DNA of 64,000 bases from Candidatus Kerfeldbacteria bacterium. Lineage in GTDB: Bacteria; Patescibacteriota; Patescibacteriia; UBA10025; JAHIVO01. Shown here piece after piece: positions 6,926 through 58,303 of this stretch. The notes under the pieces were generated by a model. The model was not told where the DNA came from, searched no databases, and saw only the letters and a program-made list of their open reading frames with translations. Both the position numbers and the translations under genes were made by a program. The first letter of the stretch is position 1; every line of letters begins with the position of its first letter. Location of the stretch: the NCBI GenBank assembly GCA_047946875.1, contig CP181398.1, positions 271,154-335,153 of the forward strand, given 5' to 3'.

Positions 6926-7088
6926 CTAGATTATGCAATTATATATAGTAAATATAGGCATCCTTGCCAATAGTTAGTTTTTTTGATAAGATATGTTATA
7001 AAAGAAATACAAGTTCTACTGAAATAAAGAGCCGGATTATAGTATAGCTCTTTAATAACCAAAAACCATTTATCGGAGGTATTATCAG

Positions 7089-8447
7089 ATGACGGAGAAA
7101 TTTAAAACTCCTGATCCAACCATGCCCACTTCCGCAGACGTAGTTGTTATCGGAGGCGGTACTATTGGTGCTCTGGTTACTTTACAATTGCAGGAAGCGG
7201 GCTTGAAGACAGTCTGTGTGGAAGCGCACAGTACTAATTTTGGCAGTTCTAGTCGTTCAGCTGCCGCAGCTCGTCAACAGTTTGGTATGGAAGCCAATAT
7301 TACGATGCAACTCTATTCTGTGGATTTTTTCGCAAATTGGAAAAAAACTTTAGGTGGCACAACGCCACCAATGCATCAAGTTGGCTATCATTTCATGTTC
7401 GACAACAATTTTACAGACAATGGCAGTACTCGGGTTGACTCTAAGGCTGTCGTAGCTGCGAAACTCAAACGAGTTGAAAAGCAACGAGCTCTCGGACTCA
7501 ATGATGTAGAATTATTGATGCCGGATGAAGTAGCCGAACGTTTTCCCTACGTTGATACTTCTGAGTTGGCCTGCTCAACTTTTTGCCAGACAGATGGATA
7601 TTGTTATCCTAATGTCATCACCAATGATGGTTTCGATCGAGCCAAATCTTTAGGAGCAACTTTGCTTCAAAATACTTTGGTTTCAGGATTTAAAACTGAC
7701 AGTAATGGTAACATTACGGCAGTTGTAACCAACAAAGGTGAGATACCTTGTCAGTATGTAGTTAATGCTGCTGGTGTCTGGGCATCACGAGTTGGTGATA
7801 TGGTAGGTACAGAATTACCAATCAGTCCAGTACGACGCTATCTGTATTTTATGGGTCCTAATCTTGGTCAACTTGATTATGATTCATTTGCTAAGAAGAA
7901 TAATCTGCCTATGCCTATGTCAGATATGCCCTTCACGGTCACTCCTAATGGTGCTTACTGTCGTGCTGATGGTAAACAATTCATGCTCGGTTGGGACCGT
8001 CGTCCATCGGAAGATGTAATATATGATTTACCTAGTTTGGTAGATCATGACGCTTCTATTCAAGCACAGGATATCATTCAAGATGGTTTTAGAACCAATG
8101 ATGATCCGAGCTATGCTGAAGAGATGTGTATGGAAGTATCTGAACGACTTCCGTTCGTATTGGATCATTGTGGCTTTGCTTCTGCCACTTCCGGTTTCTA
8201 TGGAATTACGGCTGATCATAGTCCAATTATCAGTTTTGATTCTAATGCTAAGAATTTGATTCATTGCACCGGTTTTTCTGGTCATGGAATCATGCAAGGT
8301 CCAGCGGCTGGTAAGTTAGTGATAGATCTTATCACTGGTAATACTAGTCCTATTGTTGATCCTTTTGTTTATAGCTTAGGTGGTCTTTTGAGTCATCTTA
8401 ATGGTGATACAAAAAATGCTCGTCCGGCTGAGCACATGGTTATCTAA
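7089..8447 (+). CDS. FAD-dependent oxidoreductase, DAO family (sarcosine-oxidase-beta / proline-dehydrogenase-beta-like)
   Basis: VVVIGGGTIG dinucleotide motif. About 47% GC against a roughly 30% background. SD GGAGG upstream. Confidence 0.75.
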   Translation: MTEKFKTPDPTMPTSADVVVIGGGTIGALVTLQLQEAGLKTVCVEAHSTNFGSSSRSAAAARQQFGMEANITMQLYSVDFFANWKKTLGGTTPPMHQVGYHFMFDNNFTDNGSTRVDSKAVVAAKLKRVEKQRALGLNDVELLMPDEVAERFPYVDTSELACSTFCQTDGYCYPNVITNDGFDRAKSLGATLLQNTLVSGFKTDSNGNITAVVTNKGEIPCQYVVNAAGVWASRVGDMVGTELPISPVRRYLYFMGPNLGQLDYDSFAKKNNLPMPMSDMPFTVTPNGAYCRADGKQFMLGWDRRPSEDVIYDLPSLVDHDASIQAQDIIQDGFRTNDDPSYAEEMCMEVSERLPFVLDHCGFASATSGFYGITADHSPIISFDSNAKNLIHCTGFSGHGIMQGPAAGKLVIDLITGNTSPIVDPFVYSLGGLLSHLNGDTKNARPAEHMVI

Positions 8448-45410: not shown

Positions 45411-45896
45411 ATACCTAAGTGAACTGGATGATTACCCTTTTGCATTATTTTGTACAGGGGAGGAAAGTCCGAACACCTCTTCGTGTAATAGCGAAGGATA
45501 AAGATAGTCGTTAACGGCGACCGAGTAGGATAATTTTTAAGAGAGCAATTGCCTTTTAAAGGTTATAATGCCTAGGGAAAGTGTCACAGAGACAATACCG
45601 CCTACCTTCGTTCACCTGTGGTGAACTACGGCAGGCAGGCCTAAAAGTAGGCTTGCCCAACGAAGCTCGCTAAAGGCGAGCGTAGGTGGGTAAGGGTGAA
45701 AAGAGTGGTGTAAGAGACCACAAGTAGGTTAGGTGACTAACCAGCGTGAAAAACCCTATCTGGTGCAAGATCAAGTAGGTCTATCGTAAGATAGGCGGGT
45801 TGATTGCTGGAGCTTAATAGTAATATTAAGCCAAGATAGATGATCATCGTCCCGCTTGCGGGATACAGAATTCGGCTTATAGGTTTGCTTAGGTAT
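45411..45896 (+). ncRNA. rnpB: RNase P RNA (bacterial type A, long)
   Basis: GGAGGAAAGTCCGAAC (P4), AGGGAAAGTGTCACAG and ACAGAATTCGGCTTATAG conserved blocks. P1 pairing ATACCTAAG/CTTAGGTAT. About 486 nt. Confidence 0.8.
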
Positions 45897-51382: not shown

Positions 51383-53752
51383 TTGAAAAAAAATATGGAT
51401 TTTGCTGATAAAAAAGCGCACTTAAAATTTAATAAAAGATCAAAAAATGGACATAGACAAAGCGGTCCTAATTTTGGTATACCACATGCTAATATAATTG
51501 ATTTGAAGAAGATTCATAATGAAAAGAAAGAAAAGGAAAAACAGATAATTAAAGATAATGAAAATATTATAACTAAAATTAGTAATATTAAATGGCCCAA
51601 GTTAAGTATCCCAAAAAAGATTCATCACAAAACAGCCTTGGAAAAAATACTGGTATCAAAAATTAATCAAGATGCACCAACTGAGATAAGTATAAATAAA
51701 AAAAAGGAGAATCAGAAAACAGCAAAACAAATTCCAACTAAACCAGATATTAATCAAATTAAATTAGACGTTAAACAGTTCTCACTATCCTCTGGTTGGT
51801 ATAAGCGTTTAGCTGTGTTTTCTTTAGTTTCACTAGCAATAATTGCACCAATATACTTAATGAATTTTTACGAAAATGCTAAGCAGACGCAAGGTCAAGT
51901 CTTGGGAATATCTTCAGAAGCATATGATTTTTTGAAAGAAGCGGGGTCTTTTGCTACATCTTCAGAATTCAGTGAGGCAGGAGAATCATTTGGTAAAGCT
52001 GCTGAAAGTTTTATAGAGGCGCAAGATCAATTAGAATCAGCTGGAGGAGTGGTATTGTCAATCGCAAATATAGTACCTAATAAGGCTAAAAGTGCAGAAT
52101 ATCTTTTATCAGCTGGGGCGCATATGAGTAAGGCAGGAGTTCTTGTTTCTGAGATTATACCTGAATTAGAAAATTTTGATGTTAATCCATTAGATAATAA
52201 GCAAGTTACGACACTAACTGATTTTTTATTTTTTATTAAAACAGAGTTACAACCAGTACAGACTGAGTTAGAATTAGCTATTAGTGATATTGATAATGTA
52301 AGAACTAAAGATTTGCCTGATGAGTATCAAGAAAGTATGGCACTAGTAAAAAATTCTTTACCAGCTTTGGAAAATGGTTTTGATAGGATATTTTCAGTTG
52401 CAGATGTATTACTAGTTATATTGGGGCATGAAGCTCCACAAAGATATTTACTTACTTTCCAAAATAATAGAGAATTACGACCGACTGGTGGGTTTATAGG
52501 ATCTATTGCTCTGATGGATATTTATAAAGGCAATATAGAAAATTTGGAAGTTCCTGGTGGCGGTGTTTATGATATTGCTGGACAATTAAATGAAAAAATT
52601 ATATCACCTAAACCTCTTTGGCTAGTAAATCCACATTGGAATATTCAAGATAGTAACTGGTTTGCTGATTTTCCAACTTCAGCAGAAAAAATAATTTGGT
52701 TTTATGAAAGAGCTGGCCGTACAACTGTAGATGGTGTGATGAGTATGACCCCTGAGGTGATATTAGATCTATTGAAGATTACAGGGCCTATCGTAATGGA
52801 TGATTATGGATTAACTATCGATCATAGTAATTTTATTAGAGAAACACAGTACCAAGCAGAGATTGCTTATGATAAAGAAGAAAATCAACCAAAAAAGATA
52901 ATTGGCGATATGTTACCAAAATTGTTTGATAAAATATTTTTAGTAGAATCTACTGACTTTTTGAAGATAGTTGATGTGTTCAATAAATCATTAGGAAACA
53001 AAGATATTTTATTTTATTTTACAGATGAAAACTTGGAGAATAAAATTAATGAACTTTCATGGGGAGGTAAGATTATAGATACAAATAAAGATTATTTGAT
53101 GGTAGTTAGTTCTAATATTGCTGGAGGTAAAACTGATCACGTTGTTGATCAACTAGTTTCTCACGAAGTAAATATCCAATCAGATGGATCAATGATTAAT
53201 ACAGTAAAAATTTCAAGGACACATCAAGGTAACAGTTTAGATATATGGGAAGGGGAAGACAATGTATCATACTTACGAATTTATGTACCTAAGGGAAGTG
53301 AGTTAGTGTCTATAGAGGGTTATGATAATATACCAAGTTTTAGATATTTATTACCAGATCAAGATGCAACAACAGATGATTTCTTATCCAACATTGAACG
53401 AAATTCAATTATTGACGAATCGACAGGCACAAGAATAACTACAGAATTTAATAAGACGGTTTTTGGTAATTGGATAAGTATTTCTCCTGGAGAAACACAG
53501 GAGTTAATAATCTCATACAAATTACCATTTAATCTGGATTTTGGTGGATTATTTGATAAAACAGATTCCTATAGATTGTATGTACAAAAACAACCAGGTT
53601 TAATAAATAATTTCTTTACTACCAAGGTTAATTGGTCTGATGATATTAGCTTGATTTGGAATCAGGCTGGGTTTACGATTGATGAACATTCAGCTGAATA
53701 TGTAACAGATCTTGATAGTGATAAAATATTAGGGGTGATAATTAAGAAGTAA
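51383..53752 (+). CDS. Large membrane-anchored protein (possibly DUF4012-like)
   Basis: 789-aa ORF with a basic N-terminus and one TM helix near residue 140. The domain guess is from memory only. Confidence 0.35.
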   Translation: MKKNMDFADKKAHLKFNKRSKNGHRQSGPNFGIPHANIIDLKKIHNEKKEKEKQIIKDNENIITKISNIKWPKLSIPKKIHHKTALEKILVSKINQDAPTEISINKKKENQKTAKQIPTKPDINQIKLDVKQFSLSSGWYKRLAVFSLVSLAIIAPIYLMNFYENAKQTQGQVLGISSEAYDFLKEAGSFATSSEFSEAGESFGKAAESFIEAQDQLESAGGVVLSIANIVPNKAKSAEYLLSAGAHMSKAGVLVSEIIPELENFDVNPLDNKQVTTLTDFLFFIKTELQPVQTELELAISDIDNVRTKDLPDEYQESMALVKNSLPALENGFDRIFSVADVLLVILGHEAPQRYLLTFQNNRELRPTGGFIGSIALMDIYKGNIENLEVPGGGVYDIAGQLNEKIISPKPLWLVNPHWNIQDSNWFADFPTSAEKIIWFYERAGRTTVDGVMSMTPEVILDLLKITGPIVMDDYGLTIDHSNFIRETQYQAEIAYDKEENQPKKIIGDMLPKLFDKIFLVESTDFLKIVDVFNKSLGNKDILFYFTDENLENKINELSWGGKIIDTNKDYLMVVSSNIAGGKTDHVVDQLVSHEVNIQSDGSMINTVKISRTHQGNSLDIWEGEDNVSYLRIYVPKGSELVSIEGYDNIPSFRYLLPDQDATTDDFLSNIERNSIIDESTGTRITTEFNKTVFGNWISISPGETQELIISYKLPFNLDFGGLFDKTDSYRLYVQKQPGLINNFFTTKVNWSDDISLIWNQAGFTIDEHSAEYVTDLDSDKILGVIIKK

Positions 53753-53843
53753 AATGTAGTATATTTATTGGGGTTAATTTAATATGAGTAATAATTTTTT
53801 AGCTAATTTTAGCTAATTTTTTTATTATTGTGGATATTACCCC

Positions 53844-53872
53844 TTGACAGGGAATAGTAGTAGGTATATGAT
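53844..53872 (+). promoter_or_regulatory. Near-consensus sigma70 promoter
   Basis: TTGACA-17 nt-TATGAT. Confidence 0.45.
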
Positions 53873-54028
53873 TATAAGTTATATTGTTTTTTACAACTAA
53901 ATATGTAAATAACTCTTTGAGGAGAGAGTTATCAATTAAGCATTATAATAGTGCTTATGATATAAACTATTTGAATTGAATTCTATTTATTAACAATAGA
54001 ACCAATAACTAAATTAATGTAATCAAAT

Positions 54029-54067
54029 GGCGAACTCTCCTAAAAGAAAGTTCGCTTCTTGTTTTTT
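54029..54067 (+). terminator. Rho-independent terminator
   Basis: GGCGAACT...AGTTCGC followed by TTCTTGTTTTTT. Confidence 0.55.
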
Positions 54068-54218
54068 AGGGAATGAAAAGGGGGGCTAGAAAAATGATAT
54101 CAATATGGATTAGTTTTTCTCTCGGTGTAAACTGAGAATTCACTAATCTTGGTATCTGGTGTATGCGTCAAACTTACGTGCGACTAAGCTATACCACTAG
54201 CAACCTTCTCATTCTTTG
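54068..54218 (+). repeat. Repeat family A, copy 1 (variant closing helix)
   Basis: Near-identical to copies 2-4 across about 140 nt. Ends TAGGGAATGA / TCATTCTTTG. Confidence 0.8.
54094..54135 (+). CDS. Leader uORF MISIWISFSLGVN (copy 1)
   Basis: AAAAGGGGGG SD 8 nt upstream of ATG. Conserved across 4 repeat copies. Confidence 0.35.
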   Translation: MISIWISFSLGVN

Positions 54219-54229
54219 AAAAAAAATTT

Positions 54230-54327
54230 CGAGTGGGTATAAGGTCACCTATTAGCATTCTCACGGATGAGGTGTTACCGTCTTAAATAATATAGGCGTT
54301 GGGGTGTGCAGATCCCCCTTCCACTCG
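54230..54327 (+). other. Structured 98-nt element (7-bp closing helix CGAGTGG/CCACTCG with internal hairpins)
   Basis: Long-range perfect complementarity plus GGGGtgtgcagatCCCC and CACCT...AGGTG hairpins. Lies between repeat A1 and cargo gene 1. Confidence 0.3.
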
Positions 54328-54372
54328 ACAAAATTATTCGTTAAAAAACGAGTATTGCTATTAGCAATTTGT

Positions 54373-54407
54373 GGGCGAGGTTACGGAAGCTTCGCCACCT
54401 TTTTCCA
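54373..54407 (+). terminator. Hairpin followed by T-run
   Basis: GGGCGAGG...CTTCGCC then CCTTTTTCC. Confidence 0.4.
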
Positions 54408-54479
54408 GCGGGCATCTGCTATTGTGGATGTTTGCTGAAAAAAGGGATAAAAAAGTACAAAAGGCAAAAGGAGAGCAGT

Positions 54480-54725
54480 ATGTCTGGCATATTTCTTAAA
54501 AACGTATTTGATCGCATAACAGCTTTAATGAGTAAGGCGATCGTATACAACTTCTCAGCAGATCAAAATCAACGTGATATAAGCGATCGTATAGGTACTC
54601 TAAACGATCAAATCATCAAATATGATAGTGATCTCAGCTGGGGGAATATTGAGAAGTCTGAATCTACTGAAGCAGATTTTCTTAAAGAGTTCGAAGAAAT
54701 TGAAGCAATTATTGTTACTTTCTAA
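54480..54725 (+). CDS. Cargo gene 1: small acidic protein (81 aa; start moved to ATG 54480)
   Basis: AAGGAGAG SD 6 nt upstream. The track ORF starts further upstream at 54369 with no RBS. Confidence 0.45.
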   Translation: MSGIFLKNVFDRITALMSKAIVYNFSADQNQRDISDRIGTLNDQIIKYDSDLSWGNIEKSESTEADFLKEFEEIEAIIVTF

Positions 54726-54808
54726 ATTCTTTTCCTGGGGAATGGATTTAATTCATTCCCCACACATTTCTAGAGAATCAAGTAATTGGTTAACTGGAAA
54801 TATGCTAA

Positions 54809-54999
54809 AGTTCTTTACATCAATATTTCACAGTTAGAAAAGGGGGGCTAGAAAAATGATATCAATATGGATTAGTTTTTCTCTCGGTGCAAACTGAGAA
54901 TTCACTAATCTTGGTATCTGGTGTATGCGTCAAACTTACGTGCGACTAAGCTATACCACCCGCCCAAGGCGGATAAACTAGCAATCTTCTCTAACTGTG
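54809..54999 (+). repeat. Repeat family A, copy 2 (19-nt hairpin insertion)
   Basis: CACAGTTAGA...TCTAACTGTG closing inverted repeat. Insertion CCGCCCAAGGCGG at 54959-54977. Confidence 0.8.
54856..54897 (+). CDS. Leader uORF MISIWISFSLGAN (copy 2)
   Basis: Same SD and spacing as copy 1. Confidence 0.35.
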   Translation: MISIWISFSLGAN

Positions 55000-55030
55000 A
55001 AAATATTGCTATAAGTTTTAAAAATGGAGG

Positions 55031-55273
55031 ATGAAGATGAATTCCATATGGGAAGTAGTAAAAGGCTTCATTAGTTCAATAATAGTACCTTACATTGGTA
55101 TTTGGACAATTGAAGGGACTCTGGAAGGTACAATATGTATTTATAAGTTACCGATTTATATGGTAACTGGAACTGGAGTTTGTATACTAATTCTCTTCAT
55201 TTGTTTCATAATTCATGTTGTTATTGAAGAGATTTGTGAGAAAATTAACAATAAACTTCATCAGTCCATATAG
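55031..55273 (+). CDS. Cargo gene 2: small two-TM membrane protein (start possibly 55037)
   Basis: GGAGG SD. ATG at 55037 has better spacing. Confidence 0.45.
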   Translation: MKMNSIWEVVKGFISSIIVPYIGIWTIEGTLEGTICIYKLPIYMVTGTGVCILILFICFIIHVVIEEICEKINNKLHQSI

Positions 55274-55294
55274 CAGATGTTAAATGTTCTTTAC

Positions 55295-55328
55295 GGAGAA
55301 AGCCTAAAAAACTTTCTCCACTTTTTCC
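55295..55328 (+). terminator. Rho-independent terminator
   Basis: GGAGAAAG-cctaaaaaa-CTTTCTCC followed by ACTTTTTCC. Confidence 0.5.
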
Positions 55329-55375
55329 AAGAAATAATGCAAATTGTTTGCTGAAAAAAGGGAATGTTCTTTATA

Positions 55376-55536
55376 TCAATATTTCATGGTTAGAAAAGGG
55401 GGGCTAGAAAAATGATATCAATATGGATTAGTTTTTCTCTCGGTGCAAACTGAGAATTCACTAATCTTGGTATCTGGTGTATGCGTCAAACTTACGTGCG
55501 ACTAAGCTATACCACTAGCAACCTTCTCTAACTGTG
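55376..55536 (+). repeat. Repeat family A, copy 3
   Basis: CATGGTTAGA...TCTAACTGTG. One extra C at 55441 frameshifts the uORF tail. Confidence 0.8.
55411..55464 (+). CDS. Leader uORF MISIWISFSLRCKLRIH (copy 3, frameshifted C-terminus)
   Basis: Same SD and start. A 1-nt insertion changes the last residues. Confidence 0.3.
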
Positions 55537-55574
55537 AAAAAACAATAAACATCATATAAACCTGGAGTAATGAA

Positions 55575-55955
55575 ATGATTACTGATCACGTAGAGTGGGC
55601 TCGTAAGCTGACGGAAGAGATGACTCGTGAACTCGAGGAATTACTTGCCCGTCACGGCTATCGGTTTATCGAAAGGGAAGATCTTGTTCCAGGCAGAAGG
55701 TTTCAAATGGTTGAAATATGGCCATTTGTACCGATAGAAAACCCTCGGTTCGTAGGCACTCAGGTAATGATCGATGATCCTGGTATTCGTACTTGTGATC
55801 ACCCTGATCTTCCGGATGAGTATGTATATTATCATTCGGTGGGATGGAAGAGACAGTGCTTCGTTCCGTTGGAAATGTTTCTTAATCGGCAAGCCGGACC
55901 GCATGACAATAGACAATACGCCTACGTTGTCCCAAATTTCGGAGGTTGTATGTGA
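55575..55955 (+). CDS. Cargo gene 3: hypothetical protein, about 47% GC (foreign composition)
   Basis: Compositional outlier. Its last 14 nt are part of repeat B. Confidence 0.5.
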   Translation: MITDHVEWARKLTEEMTRELEELLARHGYRFIEREDLVPGRRFQMVEIWPFVPIENPRFVGTQVMIDDPGIRTCDHPDLPDEYVYYHSVGWKRQCFVPLEMFLNRQAGPHDNRQYAYVVPNFGGCM

Positions 55956-56092
55956 CATTTATTCCAAAGTCCCAGAACCAAAACTGGTAGGATAGTTACC
56001 TGAAACAGAATAACTCGGGAAGAGATCTTTTCTTCCCGTACTTTTCCAGAATATCATGAGAGTGGTGTTTTGAAAAAGTGATTGAACATTAC
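55942..56092 (+). repeat. Repeat family B, copy 1
   Basis: About 150 nt, roughly 90% identical to copy 2. Contains perfect hairpin CGGGAAGA-gatctt-TCTTCCCG (56016-56038). Confidence 0.75.
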
Positions 56093-56112
56093 ATATAAAG
56101 AAGGGAATAATA

Positions 56113-56259
56113 ATGAATATTACTATAATATCATTAGCGCTTCTGGCAATAGTCTGTGGATGTAGATTGTATTTTTCTAAAAACGGAAAAATTCAGTTTT
56201 TAGCAGCAATCGAAGGGATAGCAATAATTATCGTAATAGTTACCACACAGATTAATTAG
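56113..56259 (+). CDS. Cargo gene 4: 48-aa small membrane protein
   Basis: AAGGGAAT SD-like sequence upstream. Two hydrophobic segments. Not in the ORF track because it is under 60 aa. Confidence 0.4.
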   Translation: MNITIISLALLAIVCGCRLYFSKNGKIQFLAAIEGIAIIIVIVTTQIN

Positions 56260-56334
56260 TCAGAGTATTATTGTTCCATAGGAAGGAAGTACAAAAATGG
56301 ATAAGATTCAAATTGAATTGGAAATTATCTAAAT

Positions 56335-56368
56335 GGGCGAGGTATTGAGAATTTCGCCCCTTTTTTTC
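56335..56368 (+). terminator. Rho-independent terminator
   Basis: GGGCGAGG...TTTCGCCCC followed by TTTTTTT. Confidence 0.55.
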
Positions 56369-56410
56369 AGCGGGCATTTGCTATTGTGAATGTTTGCTGA
56401 AAAAAAGGAA

Positions 56411-56582
56411 AGTTCTTTACATCAATATTTCACAGTTAGAAAAGGGGGGCTAGAAAAATGATATCAATATGGATTAGTTTTTCTCTCGGTGCAAACTGAG
56501 AATTCACTAATCTTGGTATCTGGTGTATGCGTCAAACTTACGTGCGACTAAGCTATACCACTAGCAACCTTCTCTAACTGTG
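56411..56582 (+). repeat. Repeat family A, copy 4
   Basis: CACAGTTAGA...TCTAACTGTG. Confidence 0.8.
56458..56499 (+). CDS. Leader uORF MISIWISFSLGAN (copy 4)
   Basis: Same SD and spacing. Confidence 0.35.
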   Translation: MISIWISFSLGAN

Positions 56583-56608
56583 AAATAAAATATAGAATAA
56601 GGAGAATT

Positions 56609-57127
56609 GTGATGAAACTTACACATTTCATTAACTGCAAATTCGATTGGTATTACCGCCTGACATTATGTCTCTTGGTATATTTCTTTACCAATTCATA
56701 TTACGTAAGTGGTCAAATCACTTATTGGAACAGTATTGGTGCGTTTATAACTGGATCGTTACTTATCAATATCATTTATGTGTTGATAACAATGATTGCA
56801 GTATATCCTTTGCACTTATTGTATTTGTTCGTTGCATCTAAGATTGCAGTCAAGAAAAAAAGACCAAAAAAAGATGAATATTGTGTCAGTTGTAGGTATT
56901 TATCGGTAACAACATTCATCGTTGTATTAACTTATGCAACTTATAAGTTTACGATTGGTGAAGCTGTTTTATGGGAAGCTGTTGTTGGGGGATTGTTGGG
57001 TGCTATCGTTGTGAATTTGATGATCCGGTTTATAGGTTGTCTAACTTTTTGGCCACTACATTCATTTTTCAATTTTGTATGGTACAAATTGTTCAAAAGA
57101 AATGTCGTACAAGCATCCACATGTTAG
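56609..57127 (+). CDS. Cargo gene 5: four-TM membrane protein
   Basis: AAGGAGAA SD. GTG/ATG start. Confidence 0.5.
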   Translation: MMKLTHFINCKFDWYYRLTLCLLVYFFTNSYYVSGQITYWNSIGAFITGSLLINIIYVLITMIAVYPLHLLYLFVASKIAVKKKRPKKDEYCVSCRYLSVTTFIVVLTYATYKFTIGEAVLWEAVVGGLLGAIVVNLMIRFIGCLTFWPLHSFFNFVWYKLFKRNVVQASTC

Positions 57128-57189
57128 TATTTTTTCACAAGTGAGATTAGACCTAGTGTCTTGATCTTGAAAAGTTCCTCTTTATTCTA

Positions 57190-57340
57190 GAGGTTATATG
57201 TGACATTTGTCCCAAGGTTCCAGAACCTATAACTGGTAGGGTAGTTACCTGAAACAGAATAACTCGGGAAGAGATCTTTTCTTCCCGTACTTTTCCAGAA
57301 TATCATGAGAGTGGTATTTTGAAAAAGTGATTGAACATTA
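57190..57340 (+). repeat. Repeat family B, copy 2
   Basis: Near-identical to copy 1, including the CGGGAAGA...TCTTCCCG hairpin. Confidence 0.75.
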
Positions 57341-57365
57341 TAACTAAATATAGATCGGAGAAAAT

Positions 57366-57521
57366 ATGTACGAATATGTAGGTATTGCAATTGGTATCAT
57401 GTTACTTGCTTATGTTGCCTATAAATATTTGGTTGCATCTGTAGTATCATGGTTTGTCTGTATGGCAATCGATAAACTGTTTGAAACCCATAATATAAGT
57501 ATGGGAAGAATAGGAAGGTAA
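57366..57521 (+). CDS. Cargo gene 6: 51-aa small membrane protein
   Basis: GGAG SD upstream. Hydrophobic core. Stop overlaps the next gene's start region. Confidence 0.4.
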   Translation: MYEYVGIAIGIMLLAYVAYKYLVASVVSWFVCMAIDKLFETHNISMGRIGR

Positions 57522-57522
57522 A

Positions 57523-57762
57523 ATGTACTATCGTCATGATGAAAGAATGATGAAAATGAATATGGCTTTAGTCTTAGTCCTAGTGCCAATTCTATTCGTA
57601 GTCACTTTCGGAATTTCTGCATTAGGATGGGGTAGCCTCGACTCTTTTATGAGAGGTTTTATGGGTTATACCACTCTTATATTTGGAGGTGTATGGTTGG
57701 CTGTCCTTGAAGGAGAAACAAAAGATTTCCGATCCAGGGTCAAGGCAATGATATGGTCATAA
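57523..57762 (+). CDS. Cargo gene 7: 79-aa two-TM membrane protein
   Basis: GGAAGG SD. Translationally coupled to gene 6. Confidence 0.45.
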   Translation: MYYRHDERMMKMNMALVLVLVPILFVVTFGISALGWGSLDSFMRGFMGYTTLIFGGVWLAVLEGETKDFRSRVKAMIWS

Positions 57763-58303
57763 ATTGACCAAGACTATAATTATATTGGGGCAGCTCTGTA
57801 TTAATACAATACATCTGCCCATTCTTTTCCAGAACATCTAGTTCCTTCTCCCATCCAGGCTCAGGATATTGTCCAAAGGACTCAGGTGTTATGAAAAAGG
57901 GGGGTGAATATTTAAACTAAAATATATATAATTAGTTTATCCTCACAATTTTTAAAATGCATGTTTGACAATTTATTATATTAAGCGTATTTTTTAACTG
58001 CTAATCAATTATTAGTTGATTGGCACAAGAAAGCTGTCGGTTATGAAATGCTGGAGATCTAACTTATTAAGTAGAAAAATCTCTCTCCTCATGTTCTAAT
58101 TTAATTATTAGAATATTTCTACTCAAAAGTTGGTATAATCCTTCAACTCATGTCGACAGCTTTTTTGATACATAGGATTTGATTCTTAGCTACATTCAGG
58201 ACACTATTATTAGTATTAGTATTTTGCGACACCTTATTGTATTTTTATCATTTTAATCATCGGTGTTGATTTATATGCTATTTTTTGTTATAATTTTTTT
58301 ATT

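Follow-up and report, generated by a model that had tools for sequence, protein, structure and literature searches.

A covarying RNA-type hairpin within a repeated intergenic module of an orphan-gene island between DUF4012 and murJ genes in Patescibacteria

How does one 150-nt sequence come to stand ahead of two unrelated small genes, and what might it do there? The question is raised by a repeat, here called B, in a 64-kb stretch of DNA from a Candidatus Kerfeldbacteria bacterium (contig CP181398.1); this whole stretch is referred to as the window. B1 (positions 55942..56093, + strand; nhmmer E = 2.7e-53) is an intercistronic module between genes C and D, and B2 (57190..57342, + strand), identified by alignment to B1, is a secondary copy between genes E and F; D and F are the 48-aa and 51-aa genes ahead of which two 150-nt copies had been predicted, and both were found at those places. 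We hold with moderate confidence that B is transcribed as an intercistronic RNA module, within a hypervariable island between DUF4012 and murJ that is made up of orphan-gene cassettes, and that it acts both as an attenuator or processing hairpin and as homology for cassette shuffling.

The alignment of B1 and B2 has 143 identical positions out of 153 (93.5%), with the identity distributed unevenly (89% over the 5' 75 nt vs. 97% over the 3' 78 nt), and the copies share a fully identical core of 74 nt. Each contains a perfect hairpin (H1) followed by ACTTTTCCAG, and the 34-mer combining the two, CGGGAAGAGATCTTTTCTTCCCGTACTTTTCCAG, occurs exactly twice in the 64 kb, where no occurrence is expected. 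The perfect 8-bp stem of the original prediction is present in both copies and can be extended to 10 bp; it includes five GC pairs and is followed by UACUUUUCC. From left to right, B is made up of a B-specific 5' domain (D1) of ~75 nt, H1, a second hairpin (M), and a short tail, GTGATTGAACATTA. In B1, D1 occupies 55942..56015, the terminator-like H1 (CGGGAAGAGA-tct-TTTCTTCCCG, from the terminator scan) 56016..56038, and M (ACUUUUC-CAGAAUAUCAU...GUGGUGUUUUG-AAAAAGU in the predicted fold) 56037..56082; in B2, H1 was found by the same scan at 57265..57287, and M lies at 57286..57331, all on the + strand. The covariance model R1, described below, scored the two M hairpins at 40.5 bits (E = 3e-6) and 41.6 bits, respectively. 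B as a whole is strongly structured (z = -3.7). D1 opens with the conserved motif GAGGTTGTATGTGA, which is kept in B1, B2, and a third copy from a relative (L021; relatives are cited by their L numbers), and which RNAalifold, run on these three sequences, predicts to pair with ACAGAATAACT. The string GAGGTNNTATGTGA was considered as a possible "start-stop" mini-open reading frame (ORF), for which the gap between the Shine-Dalgarno (SD) sequence and AUG is only 4 nt; the motif is also predicted to be paired.

B1 starts within gene C (55575..55955), as predicted, at the second base of codon 123, and reads GGA GGT TGT ATG TGA; the overlap comprises the last four codons and the TGA stop rather than the last five codons. 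A similarity immediately upstream of the two copies (VPNFGGCM* vs. VPLYSRGYM*) is weak, not significant, and was set aside. Beyond B1 and B2, which lie within 1.3 kb of each other, no full-length B was found in the window, in a viral collection scanned with exact and degenerate cores of B and of a second structured element, family A (see below), or in genome and metagenome collections scanned with a combined A/B 31-mer. B was also rejected as a miniature inverted-repeat transposable element or other dispersed repeat: it is without terminal inverted repeats, and its copies are close together with none elsewhere in the 64 kb. Nor do B1 and B2 behave as the template and variable repeats of a diversity-generating retroelement, because their differences are not adenine-specific and only 14 nt overlap a gene; no reverse transcriptase gene was noticed, though the other ORFs of the window had no family scan.

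Rather than standing alone as a family, B represents a subtype of a more widespread boundary module, which consists of H1, a variable GC-rich hairpin, and then M, a conserved one (CUUUUCCAG-stem/loop-CUGAAAAAG). That B shares a motif with boxes upstream of family A had been noticed in the original prediction, and these do constitute one common module, with six occurrences rather than four. The motif CTTTT(T)CCAG...TG(C)TGAAAAA (CTTTTCCAG ... TGAAAAAG) was found at 54399, 55321, 56041, 56360, 57290, and 57824, always on the + strand, and was absent from the 60 kb of the window outside the island; the six modules occupy an island of 4.5 kb, the motifs spanning 54.4-57.9 kb. Apart from those in B1 and B2, the H1+M modules, all on the + strand, are module 1 (54374..54447; 56.5 bits with the covariance model), ahead of an 81-aa gene; module 2 (55296..55364; 45.4 bits), after a 78-aa gene and ahead of the family A copy A3; module 4 (56335..56410; 57.9 bits), after gene D and a mini-ORF and ahead of copy A4; and module 6 (57789..57904; 26.8 bits, E = 0.004), a long-loop variant outside the training set of the model at the last cassette boundary. 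Modules 1 and 4 were also recovered by the terminator and motif scans, and module 2 by the motif scan. Module 6 is 78-80% identical to sequences in two relatives (L003 8870-8947 and L021 1802-1884).

Is the shared motif, then, a pair of DNA boxes or an RNA structure? A representative M reads CCUUUUU-C-CAGCGGGCAUCU...GUGGAUGUUUGCUG-A-AAAAAGG, with several G·U pairs and one C·A mismatch. A first alignment of M (alignment A3; MAFFT, 15 sequences from four genomes), from which R1 was built, had 89% of its cells paired vs. ~50% when the 3' partners were slid, two-sided changes at 13 of 19 pairs, and a covariation of 0.57 vs. 0.22 in shuffled alignments, none of 500 of which reached the observed value. 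A second set comprised the 30 matches (29 distinct) in 11 genomes that scored below E = 1e-4, about half of the covariance-model matches lying outside the training set; here 92.5% of cells are paired vs. 45-53% when slid, compensatory changes occur at 16 of 19 pairs, and the covariation is 0.605 vs. 0.215 (0/500 shuffles). The latter alignment was fitted to the model, which favors the structure, but the independent MAFFT result agrees. The core U-[C]-CAG ... CUG-[A]-A is invariant, apart from its bracketed pyrimidine: C (23) or U (7) stands opposite an invariant A, between invariant positions. One position is a G·U pair in 18 of 29 sequences, and the loop ranges from 45 to 85 nt. In several members, including those of L018 (CCAUUCCAGC/GCUGAAAUGG) and L025 (CCCUCCUUCAGC/GCUGAAGGAGGG), the outer U:A stem is exchanged for compensated non-U sequence, and it is thus the pairing and not the run of U that is conserved.

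The + strand folds markedly better than the - strand in six of eight cases (-21.6 vs. -12.8; -24.7 vs. -12.3 kcal/mol), and every M of the islands is stronger on the sense strand (40-63 bits vs. 17-32 bits antisense). Covariation, G·U pairs, and the bias toward the sense strand together point to M being a conserved RNA hairpin that functions in the sense transcript, and the covariation makes the two halves of the motif the strands of one hairpin rather than a promoter box. Matches were found in the window (6), L003 (4), L004 (5), L005 (3), L018, and L020-L026; at E up to 0.1 all lay between DUF4012 and murJ, and at E up to 1 the sole match outside an island was one of 13 bits (E = 0.53) in L019. 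Across the 11 related Patescibacteria genomes, no module was found outside the interval from the DUF4012 gene to murJ, and every one was on the sense strand. In Rfam, nothing matched B, M, family A, or the small RNAs on either flank, whether the gathering threshold or E up to 10 was applied; with Rfam 15, positions 53700-58300 gave no match at E up to 10 save chance microRNA-like matches to the M4 hairpin.

The shared motif had been predicted to be a promoter/terminator module, and the terminator half of that prediction is plausible, given the terminator-like hairpin. In 29 of the 30 modules, the gap between the end of H1 and the start of M is 0-3 nt, the exception being one that follows a family A element and not a gene, and the island has more terminator-like sites than expected (10 vs. 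2.8). An H1 stem is present in 29 of the 30, but only 3-7 U are found among the nine nucleotides after H1; so few U suggest that H1 would be an attenuator or a 3'-end stabilizer rather than a full stop.

The promoter half did not find support. In its full form, H1 would terminate the gene before it, and transcription would be restarted by a promoter within or behind M, in the manner of the promoter-early stem-loop (PeSL) cassettes of phages, which show that composite modules shuffling ORFans exist (PMC2839356). H1 and its U-rich tract are indeed terminator-like, and the last M of each island, but only the last, precedes a strong TTGACA-17-TAnnnT, the conserved promoter of a candidate small RNA, with the A-tract placed like an UP element (L004 9134, L005 9534, L020 2328). 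Over the 90 nt from the 3' strand of M on, however, the best sigma-70-type promoter scores behind the 30 M hairpins averaged 5.8 of 12, equal to the shuffled level of 5.2; under the criteria of the script, nine of the 30 had no candidate at all, and only six reached 9/12. B1 carries a single match, TTGAAC-18-AATAAT, but it would start transcription past the ATG and is absent from B2 and L021, and in some islands the start codon lies only ~22 nt past M. Two strands separated by a loop of such variable length cannot be promoter boxes with fixed spacing, and their covariation pairs them with each other. We regard a terminator-plus-promoter cassette as unlikely. With neither room for promoters nor enrichment of them after M, the downstream genes are read as transcribed through the module, the likely source being the promoter at 53844 (TTGACA-17-TATGAT), which is invariant in relatives.

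Where did B itself come from? MurJ relatives were fetched from GTDB genomes and a large assembly collection. In those that reach far enough upstream, the gene order is glycosyltransferases, DUF4012, a variable stretch of 2.4-6.3 kb, murJ, lepA, and bPH_2, and the variable stretch consists in each of ORFs without Pfam families; the window has the same flanks, DUF4012, MurJ, and LepA, together with glycosyltransferase-type genes identified by synteny with L022-L026. The closest relative, L021 (Logan SRR7589087), has a MurJ 82% identical to that of the window and contains an orthologue of B at 1353-1541 (nhmmer E = 3e-13); none was found in the other relatives. This orthologue, to which B1 and B2 are ~60% identical, keeps the layout of three domains: its 5' motif, GAGGTAATATGTGA, is the same, as is the H1 stem CGGGAAG/CTTCCCG around a different loop, TACTTTTCCAG is identical, and M carries a long insertion. 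Downstream of it is a 47-aa ORF 53% identical to gene D and then an 11-codon mini-ORF, whereas upstream is an unrelated 326-aa gene whose stop lies 25 nt before the B motif.

With its gene D orthologue present and an unrelated gene in front, B belongs with the downstream gene, and likewise the 5' motif belongs to B and not to gene C. From this comparison we conclude that B, gene D, and the mini-ORF formed an ancestral unit. On the same sequence evidence, B is older than its junction with gene C, which reads into B and borrows its TGA; the proposal that gene C either came in with the element or was fused to it therefore survives in its second form but not in its first, B in L021 lying behind an unrelated gene. 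B2, at 93.5% identity to B1 as opposed to ~60% to L021, is a recent copy made within this lineage that now stands before the unrelated gene F. A side observation concerns L008, a more distant relative among the Parcubacteria (MurJ 49% identical), in which the DUF4012-murJ spacer is only 690 nt (6948-7639) and has an L-like motif, GGAGGGAGAGAGAG, an R motif, no ORF of at least 60 aa, and a bare TTTTTTTGAAAAAAA in the place of M; cassettes may have accumulated in an ancestral spacer of this kind.

Could B2 simply be a neutral local duplication, a recent copy of a 150-nt spacer with no function of its own? The original prediction had allowed for similarity limited to two copies that a tandem duplication of a gene pair would explain. 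The first part nearly holds, with two full-length copies in the window and only the L021 orthologue besides, and the high identity of B1 and B2 does imply a recent event. A tandem duplication of a gene pair is excluded, as the flanking genes are mutually unrelated (C vs. E, D vs. F). The wider explanation is distinctly unlikely too: B has been kept with the same three domains in a relative at ~60% identity, its 3' half is the covarying M common to 11 genomes, and it is this half that is the better conserved between B1 and B2.

Recombination between the copies may already have left a product. A 1.6-kb metagenome contig, L001 (JGI 3300083231), contains A2, gene B', M2, A3, gene C, B, gene F, and gene G in that order and is without gene D, A4, and gene E; its single B is like B1 on the left and like B2 on the right. 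Judged from its sequence, the joint is exactly the product expected of a B1 x B2 crossover in the identical core. The gene C-B-gene F joint parallels the deletion of ORF192 in phages RB49/phi1 attributed to PeSLs (PMC2839356).

In the mechanism that we favor, in which B is a transcribed intercistronic module, the island would be read one way from the conserved strong promoter at 53844, with B serving as the 3' untranslated region (UTR) of the upstream gene and the 5' UTR of the downstream one. At each boundary, H1 and its U-rich tract would attenuate transcription or stabilize the upstream 3' end, and M would form only in read-through RNA, its 5' strand being the pyrimidine/U-rich tract right after H1 and its 3' strand the purine/A-rich tract. 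The resulting helix of ~20 bp, with its conserved C·A mismatch and conserved G·U pair, could be a processing, stability, or translation-insulating element that separates neighboring cistrons. Our preferred guess is an RNase III-type cleavage site, since in size and shape the helix is like a site cut once by RNase III or like a hairpin that protects 5' ends. Being direct repeats, the modules would in addition provide homology for RecA-type recombination, leading to deletion, duplication, or re-partnering of cassettes, and shuffling at the modules would account for the presence of B before two small genes, and behind three genes, that are unrelated to one another.

Several observations weigh against parts of this proposal. 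With 3-7 U in nine positions, many modules would make poor intrinsic terminators. The fold predicted for D1 comes from three sequences with almost no covariation. The restriction of M to islands holds for the stretches that were scanned, namely 64 kb of this genome and ~20 kb per relative, and no dedicated protein partner of M was identified. L001 has no single-nucleotide polymorphisms relative to the window, and the identical core of 74 nt could have led the assembly to join two sequences into a chimera.

A third alternative is that M, as folded single-stranded DNA, is an attC-like site for a site-specific recombinase, the island being an integron-like array without a linked integrase. There is one imperfect hairpin at the 3' end of each cassette, only its stem base is conserved around the variable loop, it has a conserved mismatch, and the cassettes are all co-oriented orphans behind one strong promoter. 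The core, however, is CAG/CTG and not RYYYAAC/GTTRRRY, and no Phage_integrase or other recombinase occurs among the precomputed Pfam matches within 10 kb on either side of the five loci that are long enough (L022-L026). Furthermore, the strand that folds better is the coding (top) strand, relying on G·U pairs, which point to RNA, and not every module follows a gene (L004 7154). We therefore consider such a site very improbable. Scarcely credible is a type I toxin arrangement, in which D and F would be small hydrophobic toxins whose translation is checked by B and an antisense RNA would target B: both genes do encode hydrophobic peptides of 48-51 aa, B is strongly structured, and a promoter-like TTGCCA-16-TATAGT lies on the minus strand at 56149-56122, but that site is not part of the repeat and has no conserved counterpart at gene F or in L021, Pfam gives no support, and M modules precede all kinds of genes, including those for lipoproteins, an FHA-like protein, and 300-aa proteins.

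Gene C (+ strand), the orphan that ends in B1, encodes 126 aa and is compositionally foreign (45.9% GC vs. 32% for the window). A word-indexed search found only the protein itself among 5.8e9 proteins, and full HMMER found 19 remote relatives (E = 1e-9 to 6e-4); neither the protein nor a profile of 17 sequences (gene C and 16 of the remote relatives) gave a Pfam or PDB match. The family is ~100-130 aa in length and conserves D36, G40, D67, a YYHC-like motif, W91, and C95. Gene D (56113..56259, +), the conserved partner of B, encodes a 48-aa membrane peptide whose protein search returned only itself and for which an exact look-up gave no record. Directly after it is the unannotated mini-ORF of 11 codons, MDKIQIELEII (56297..56332, +), with a good SD sequence of its own, GGAAGGAAG; in L021 it reads MDKFLIGLGII (1744-1779), keeping length, position, and pattern. 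Gene E (56612..57127, +), upstream of B2, encodes a 171-aa membrane protein unrelated to gene C, and gene F (57366..57521, +), downstream of B2, a 51-aa membrane peptide unrelated to gene D. An all-against-all BLASTP comparison of the island ORFs gave no match with E < 1e-3 within or between islands, and Pfam and PHROGs gave nothing above noise for any of the seven cassette proteins of the window.

Alternating with the modules is family A, a structured RNA of ~160 nt in which an SD-like/anti-SD-like helix (GAAAAGGRGGG ... CCUUCUC) closes a three-way junction. Its sense-strand copies in the window are at 54065-54224, 54827-55005, 55384-55542, and 56429-56588, and those in relatives at L003 7467-7619 and 8975-9123; L004 6289-6444 and 6951-7109; L005 6374-6517 and 6657-6807; L024 6917-7060; L025 8024-8160; and L021 104-279. 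Identity across species is 65-70%, compensatory changes occur at 21 of 37 predicted pairs, and the single-sequence fold has z = -7.9. Outside these islands no copy of family A was found; the copies are on the sense strand, usually just upstream of a cassette SD sequence, and the element could be a riboswitch-like or translational control leader. A 13-codon ORF inside it (MISIWISFSLGAN) is not conserved in relatives and was rejected. Copy A2 has a 19-nt hairpin insertion, CCGCCcaaGGCGG, in one arm (54958-54976); the L021 copy has the same insertion with a changed loop (233-252), so this variant is orthologous across species. Between A1 and the first H1+M, an ORF-free stretch of ~150 nt (54225-54372) is structured and includes a long-range pairing (GAGTGGGTATAAGG ... 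CCTTCCACTC), and stretches matching it in position but dissimilar in sequence exist in L003 and L004.

The two ends of the island are also conserved. The leader (53844-54066) comprises the promoter (53844-53872), the invariant TGTGGATAT, followed by CTTGACAG and ACTCTTTGAGGAGAGAGT in that order, with the motif at 53913-53928, and a conserved terminator-like hairpin (54030-54055); a metagenome scan with the leader motif returned duplicates of L004 and L005 and one new contig of 1.1 kb, L018. At the other end is a candidate small RNA or murJ leader of ~170 nt without an Rfam match (57965-58172; promoter 57965-57993, TTGACA-17; motif 58077-58091), found upstream of murJ in 11 genomes, including the one whose MurJ is only 49% identical (L003 9783-9948, L004 9250-9432, L005 9627-9795, L008 7425-7555, and others). 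Its long closing helix, AGAAAGCUGUCGG ... CCGGCAGCUUUUUU, has compensatory changes at 8 of 16 pairs, and AAUCUCUCUCCUCA is invariant. In every genome checked, GAGGAGAGAG of the leader is perfectly complementary to CUCUCUCCUC of the candidate small RNA, and both motifs are invariant. Two observations elsewhere in the window are an RNase P RNA (class A, 208 bits; 45416-45895) whose 480 nt against a model of 367 positions imply sizeable insertions, and, a short way downstream of the DUF4012 gene, a 10-nt sequence repeated exactly in tandem (tagctaattt tagctaattt; 53800-53819).

These elements admit a bolder speculation, which we rate as quite improbable: that the island is an integrase-free cassette system run by an RNA scaffold (the leader GAGGAGAGAG, family A, H1+M, and the small RNA CUCUCUCCUC), in which M would be the site specifically recognized by a dedicated nuclease or recombination/retro-integration activity, whose work would be both to process the polycistronic RNA and to capture or exchange orphan genes. 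Whatever its mechanism, the locus is the reverse of what is usual, namely genes that are conserved and spacers that vary. The genomes of Patescibacteria are tiny and leave little space for accessory DNA, yet this lineage has retained one fixed slot beside cell-envelope genes, in which unrelated orphan membrane, lipoprotein, and secreted genes are fully replaced between species while the non-coding scaffold is kept. At least two of its structured RNA motifs, M and family A, have good covariation support and are apparently unreported, with no Rfam match and no description found in the literature. The slot is a tractable site for asking how episymbiotic bacteria diversify their surface repertoire.

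How does the module compare with known systems? Integron arrays carry attC sites, among which the VCR repeats in the chromosomal integrons of Vibrio are highly similar to one another. The likeness, which is one of resemblance only, lies in promoterless orphan cassettes that are co-oriented behind one promoter, in one imperfect palindromic site with extrahelical bases per cassette whose structure is conserved over its sequence, and in repeats homogenized within the array; the differences are the missing integrase family and attC cores and the favored top strand noted above. H1 is like a Rho-independent terminator in being a GC-rich stem followed by a U-rich tract, which here differs in pairing with the downstream A-rich tract and in being replaceable by compensated non-U sequence. 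Hairpins between cistrons or in 3' UTRs that determine how stable individual mRNA segments are, or that serve as RNase III sites, are known as the repetitive extragenic palindromic (REP) elements in Escherichia coli operons, the RNase III sites of T7 early mRNA, and the puf operon hairpins. As with these, hairpins on the sense strand are repeated between the cistrons of one transcript and paired with a terminator-like hairpin, and the helix of M with its internal mismatch resembles single-cut RNase III sites, cleavage here being predicted only. The differences are that M, instead of being dispersed, is limited to a single island, and that its sequence is unrelated to REP elements (preprint 10.64898/2026.03.23.713779) or T7 sites.

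The closest functional analogue of the module would appear to be the PeSL cassettes that shuffle ORFans in the hyperplastic regions of T4-type phages (Arbiol et al. 2010, PMC2839356; PMC4122927). In both cases, the small orphan ORFs of a hypervariable region have conserved intergenic modules of ~50-100 nt on their flanks, each with a terminator or attenuator stem-loop, and the repeats provide, or here would provide, the homology for insertion, deletion, and replacement of ORFs. PeSLs differ in having a strong sigma-70 early promoter, whereas none is detectable here and no -35/-10 is conserved among B1, B2, and L021; the conserved part of the present module is a covarying RNA hairpin instead of promoter boxes, a second structured RNA (family A) alternates with it, and its host is a bacterial chromosome with a fixed DUF4012-murJ site and not a phage. 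The island also lends itself to asking whether a cassette array in a cellular genome can be run by regulatory repeats with no recombinase, as PeSLs appear to do in T4-type phages.

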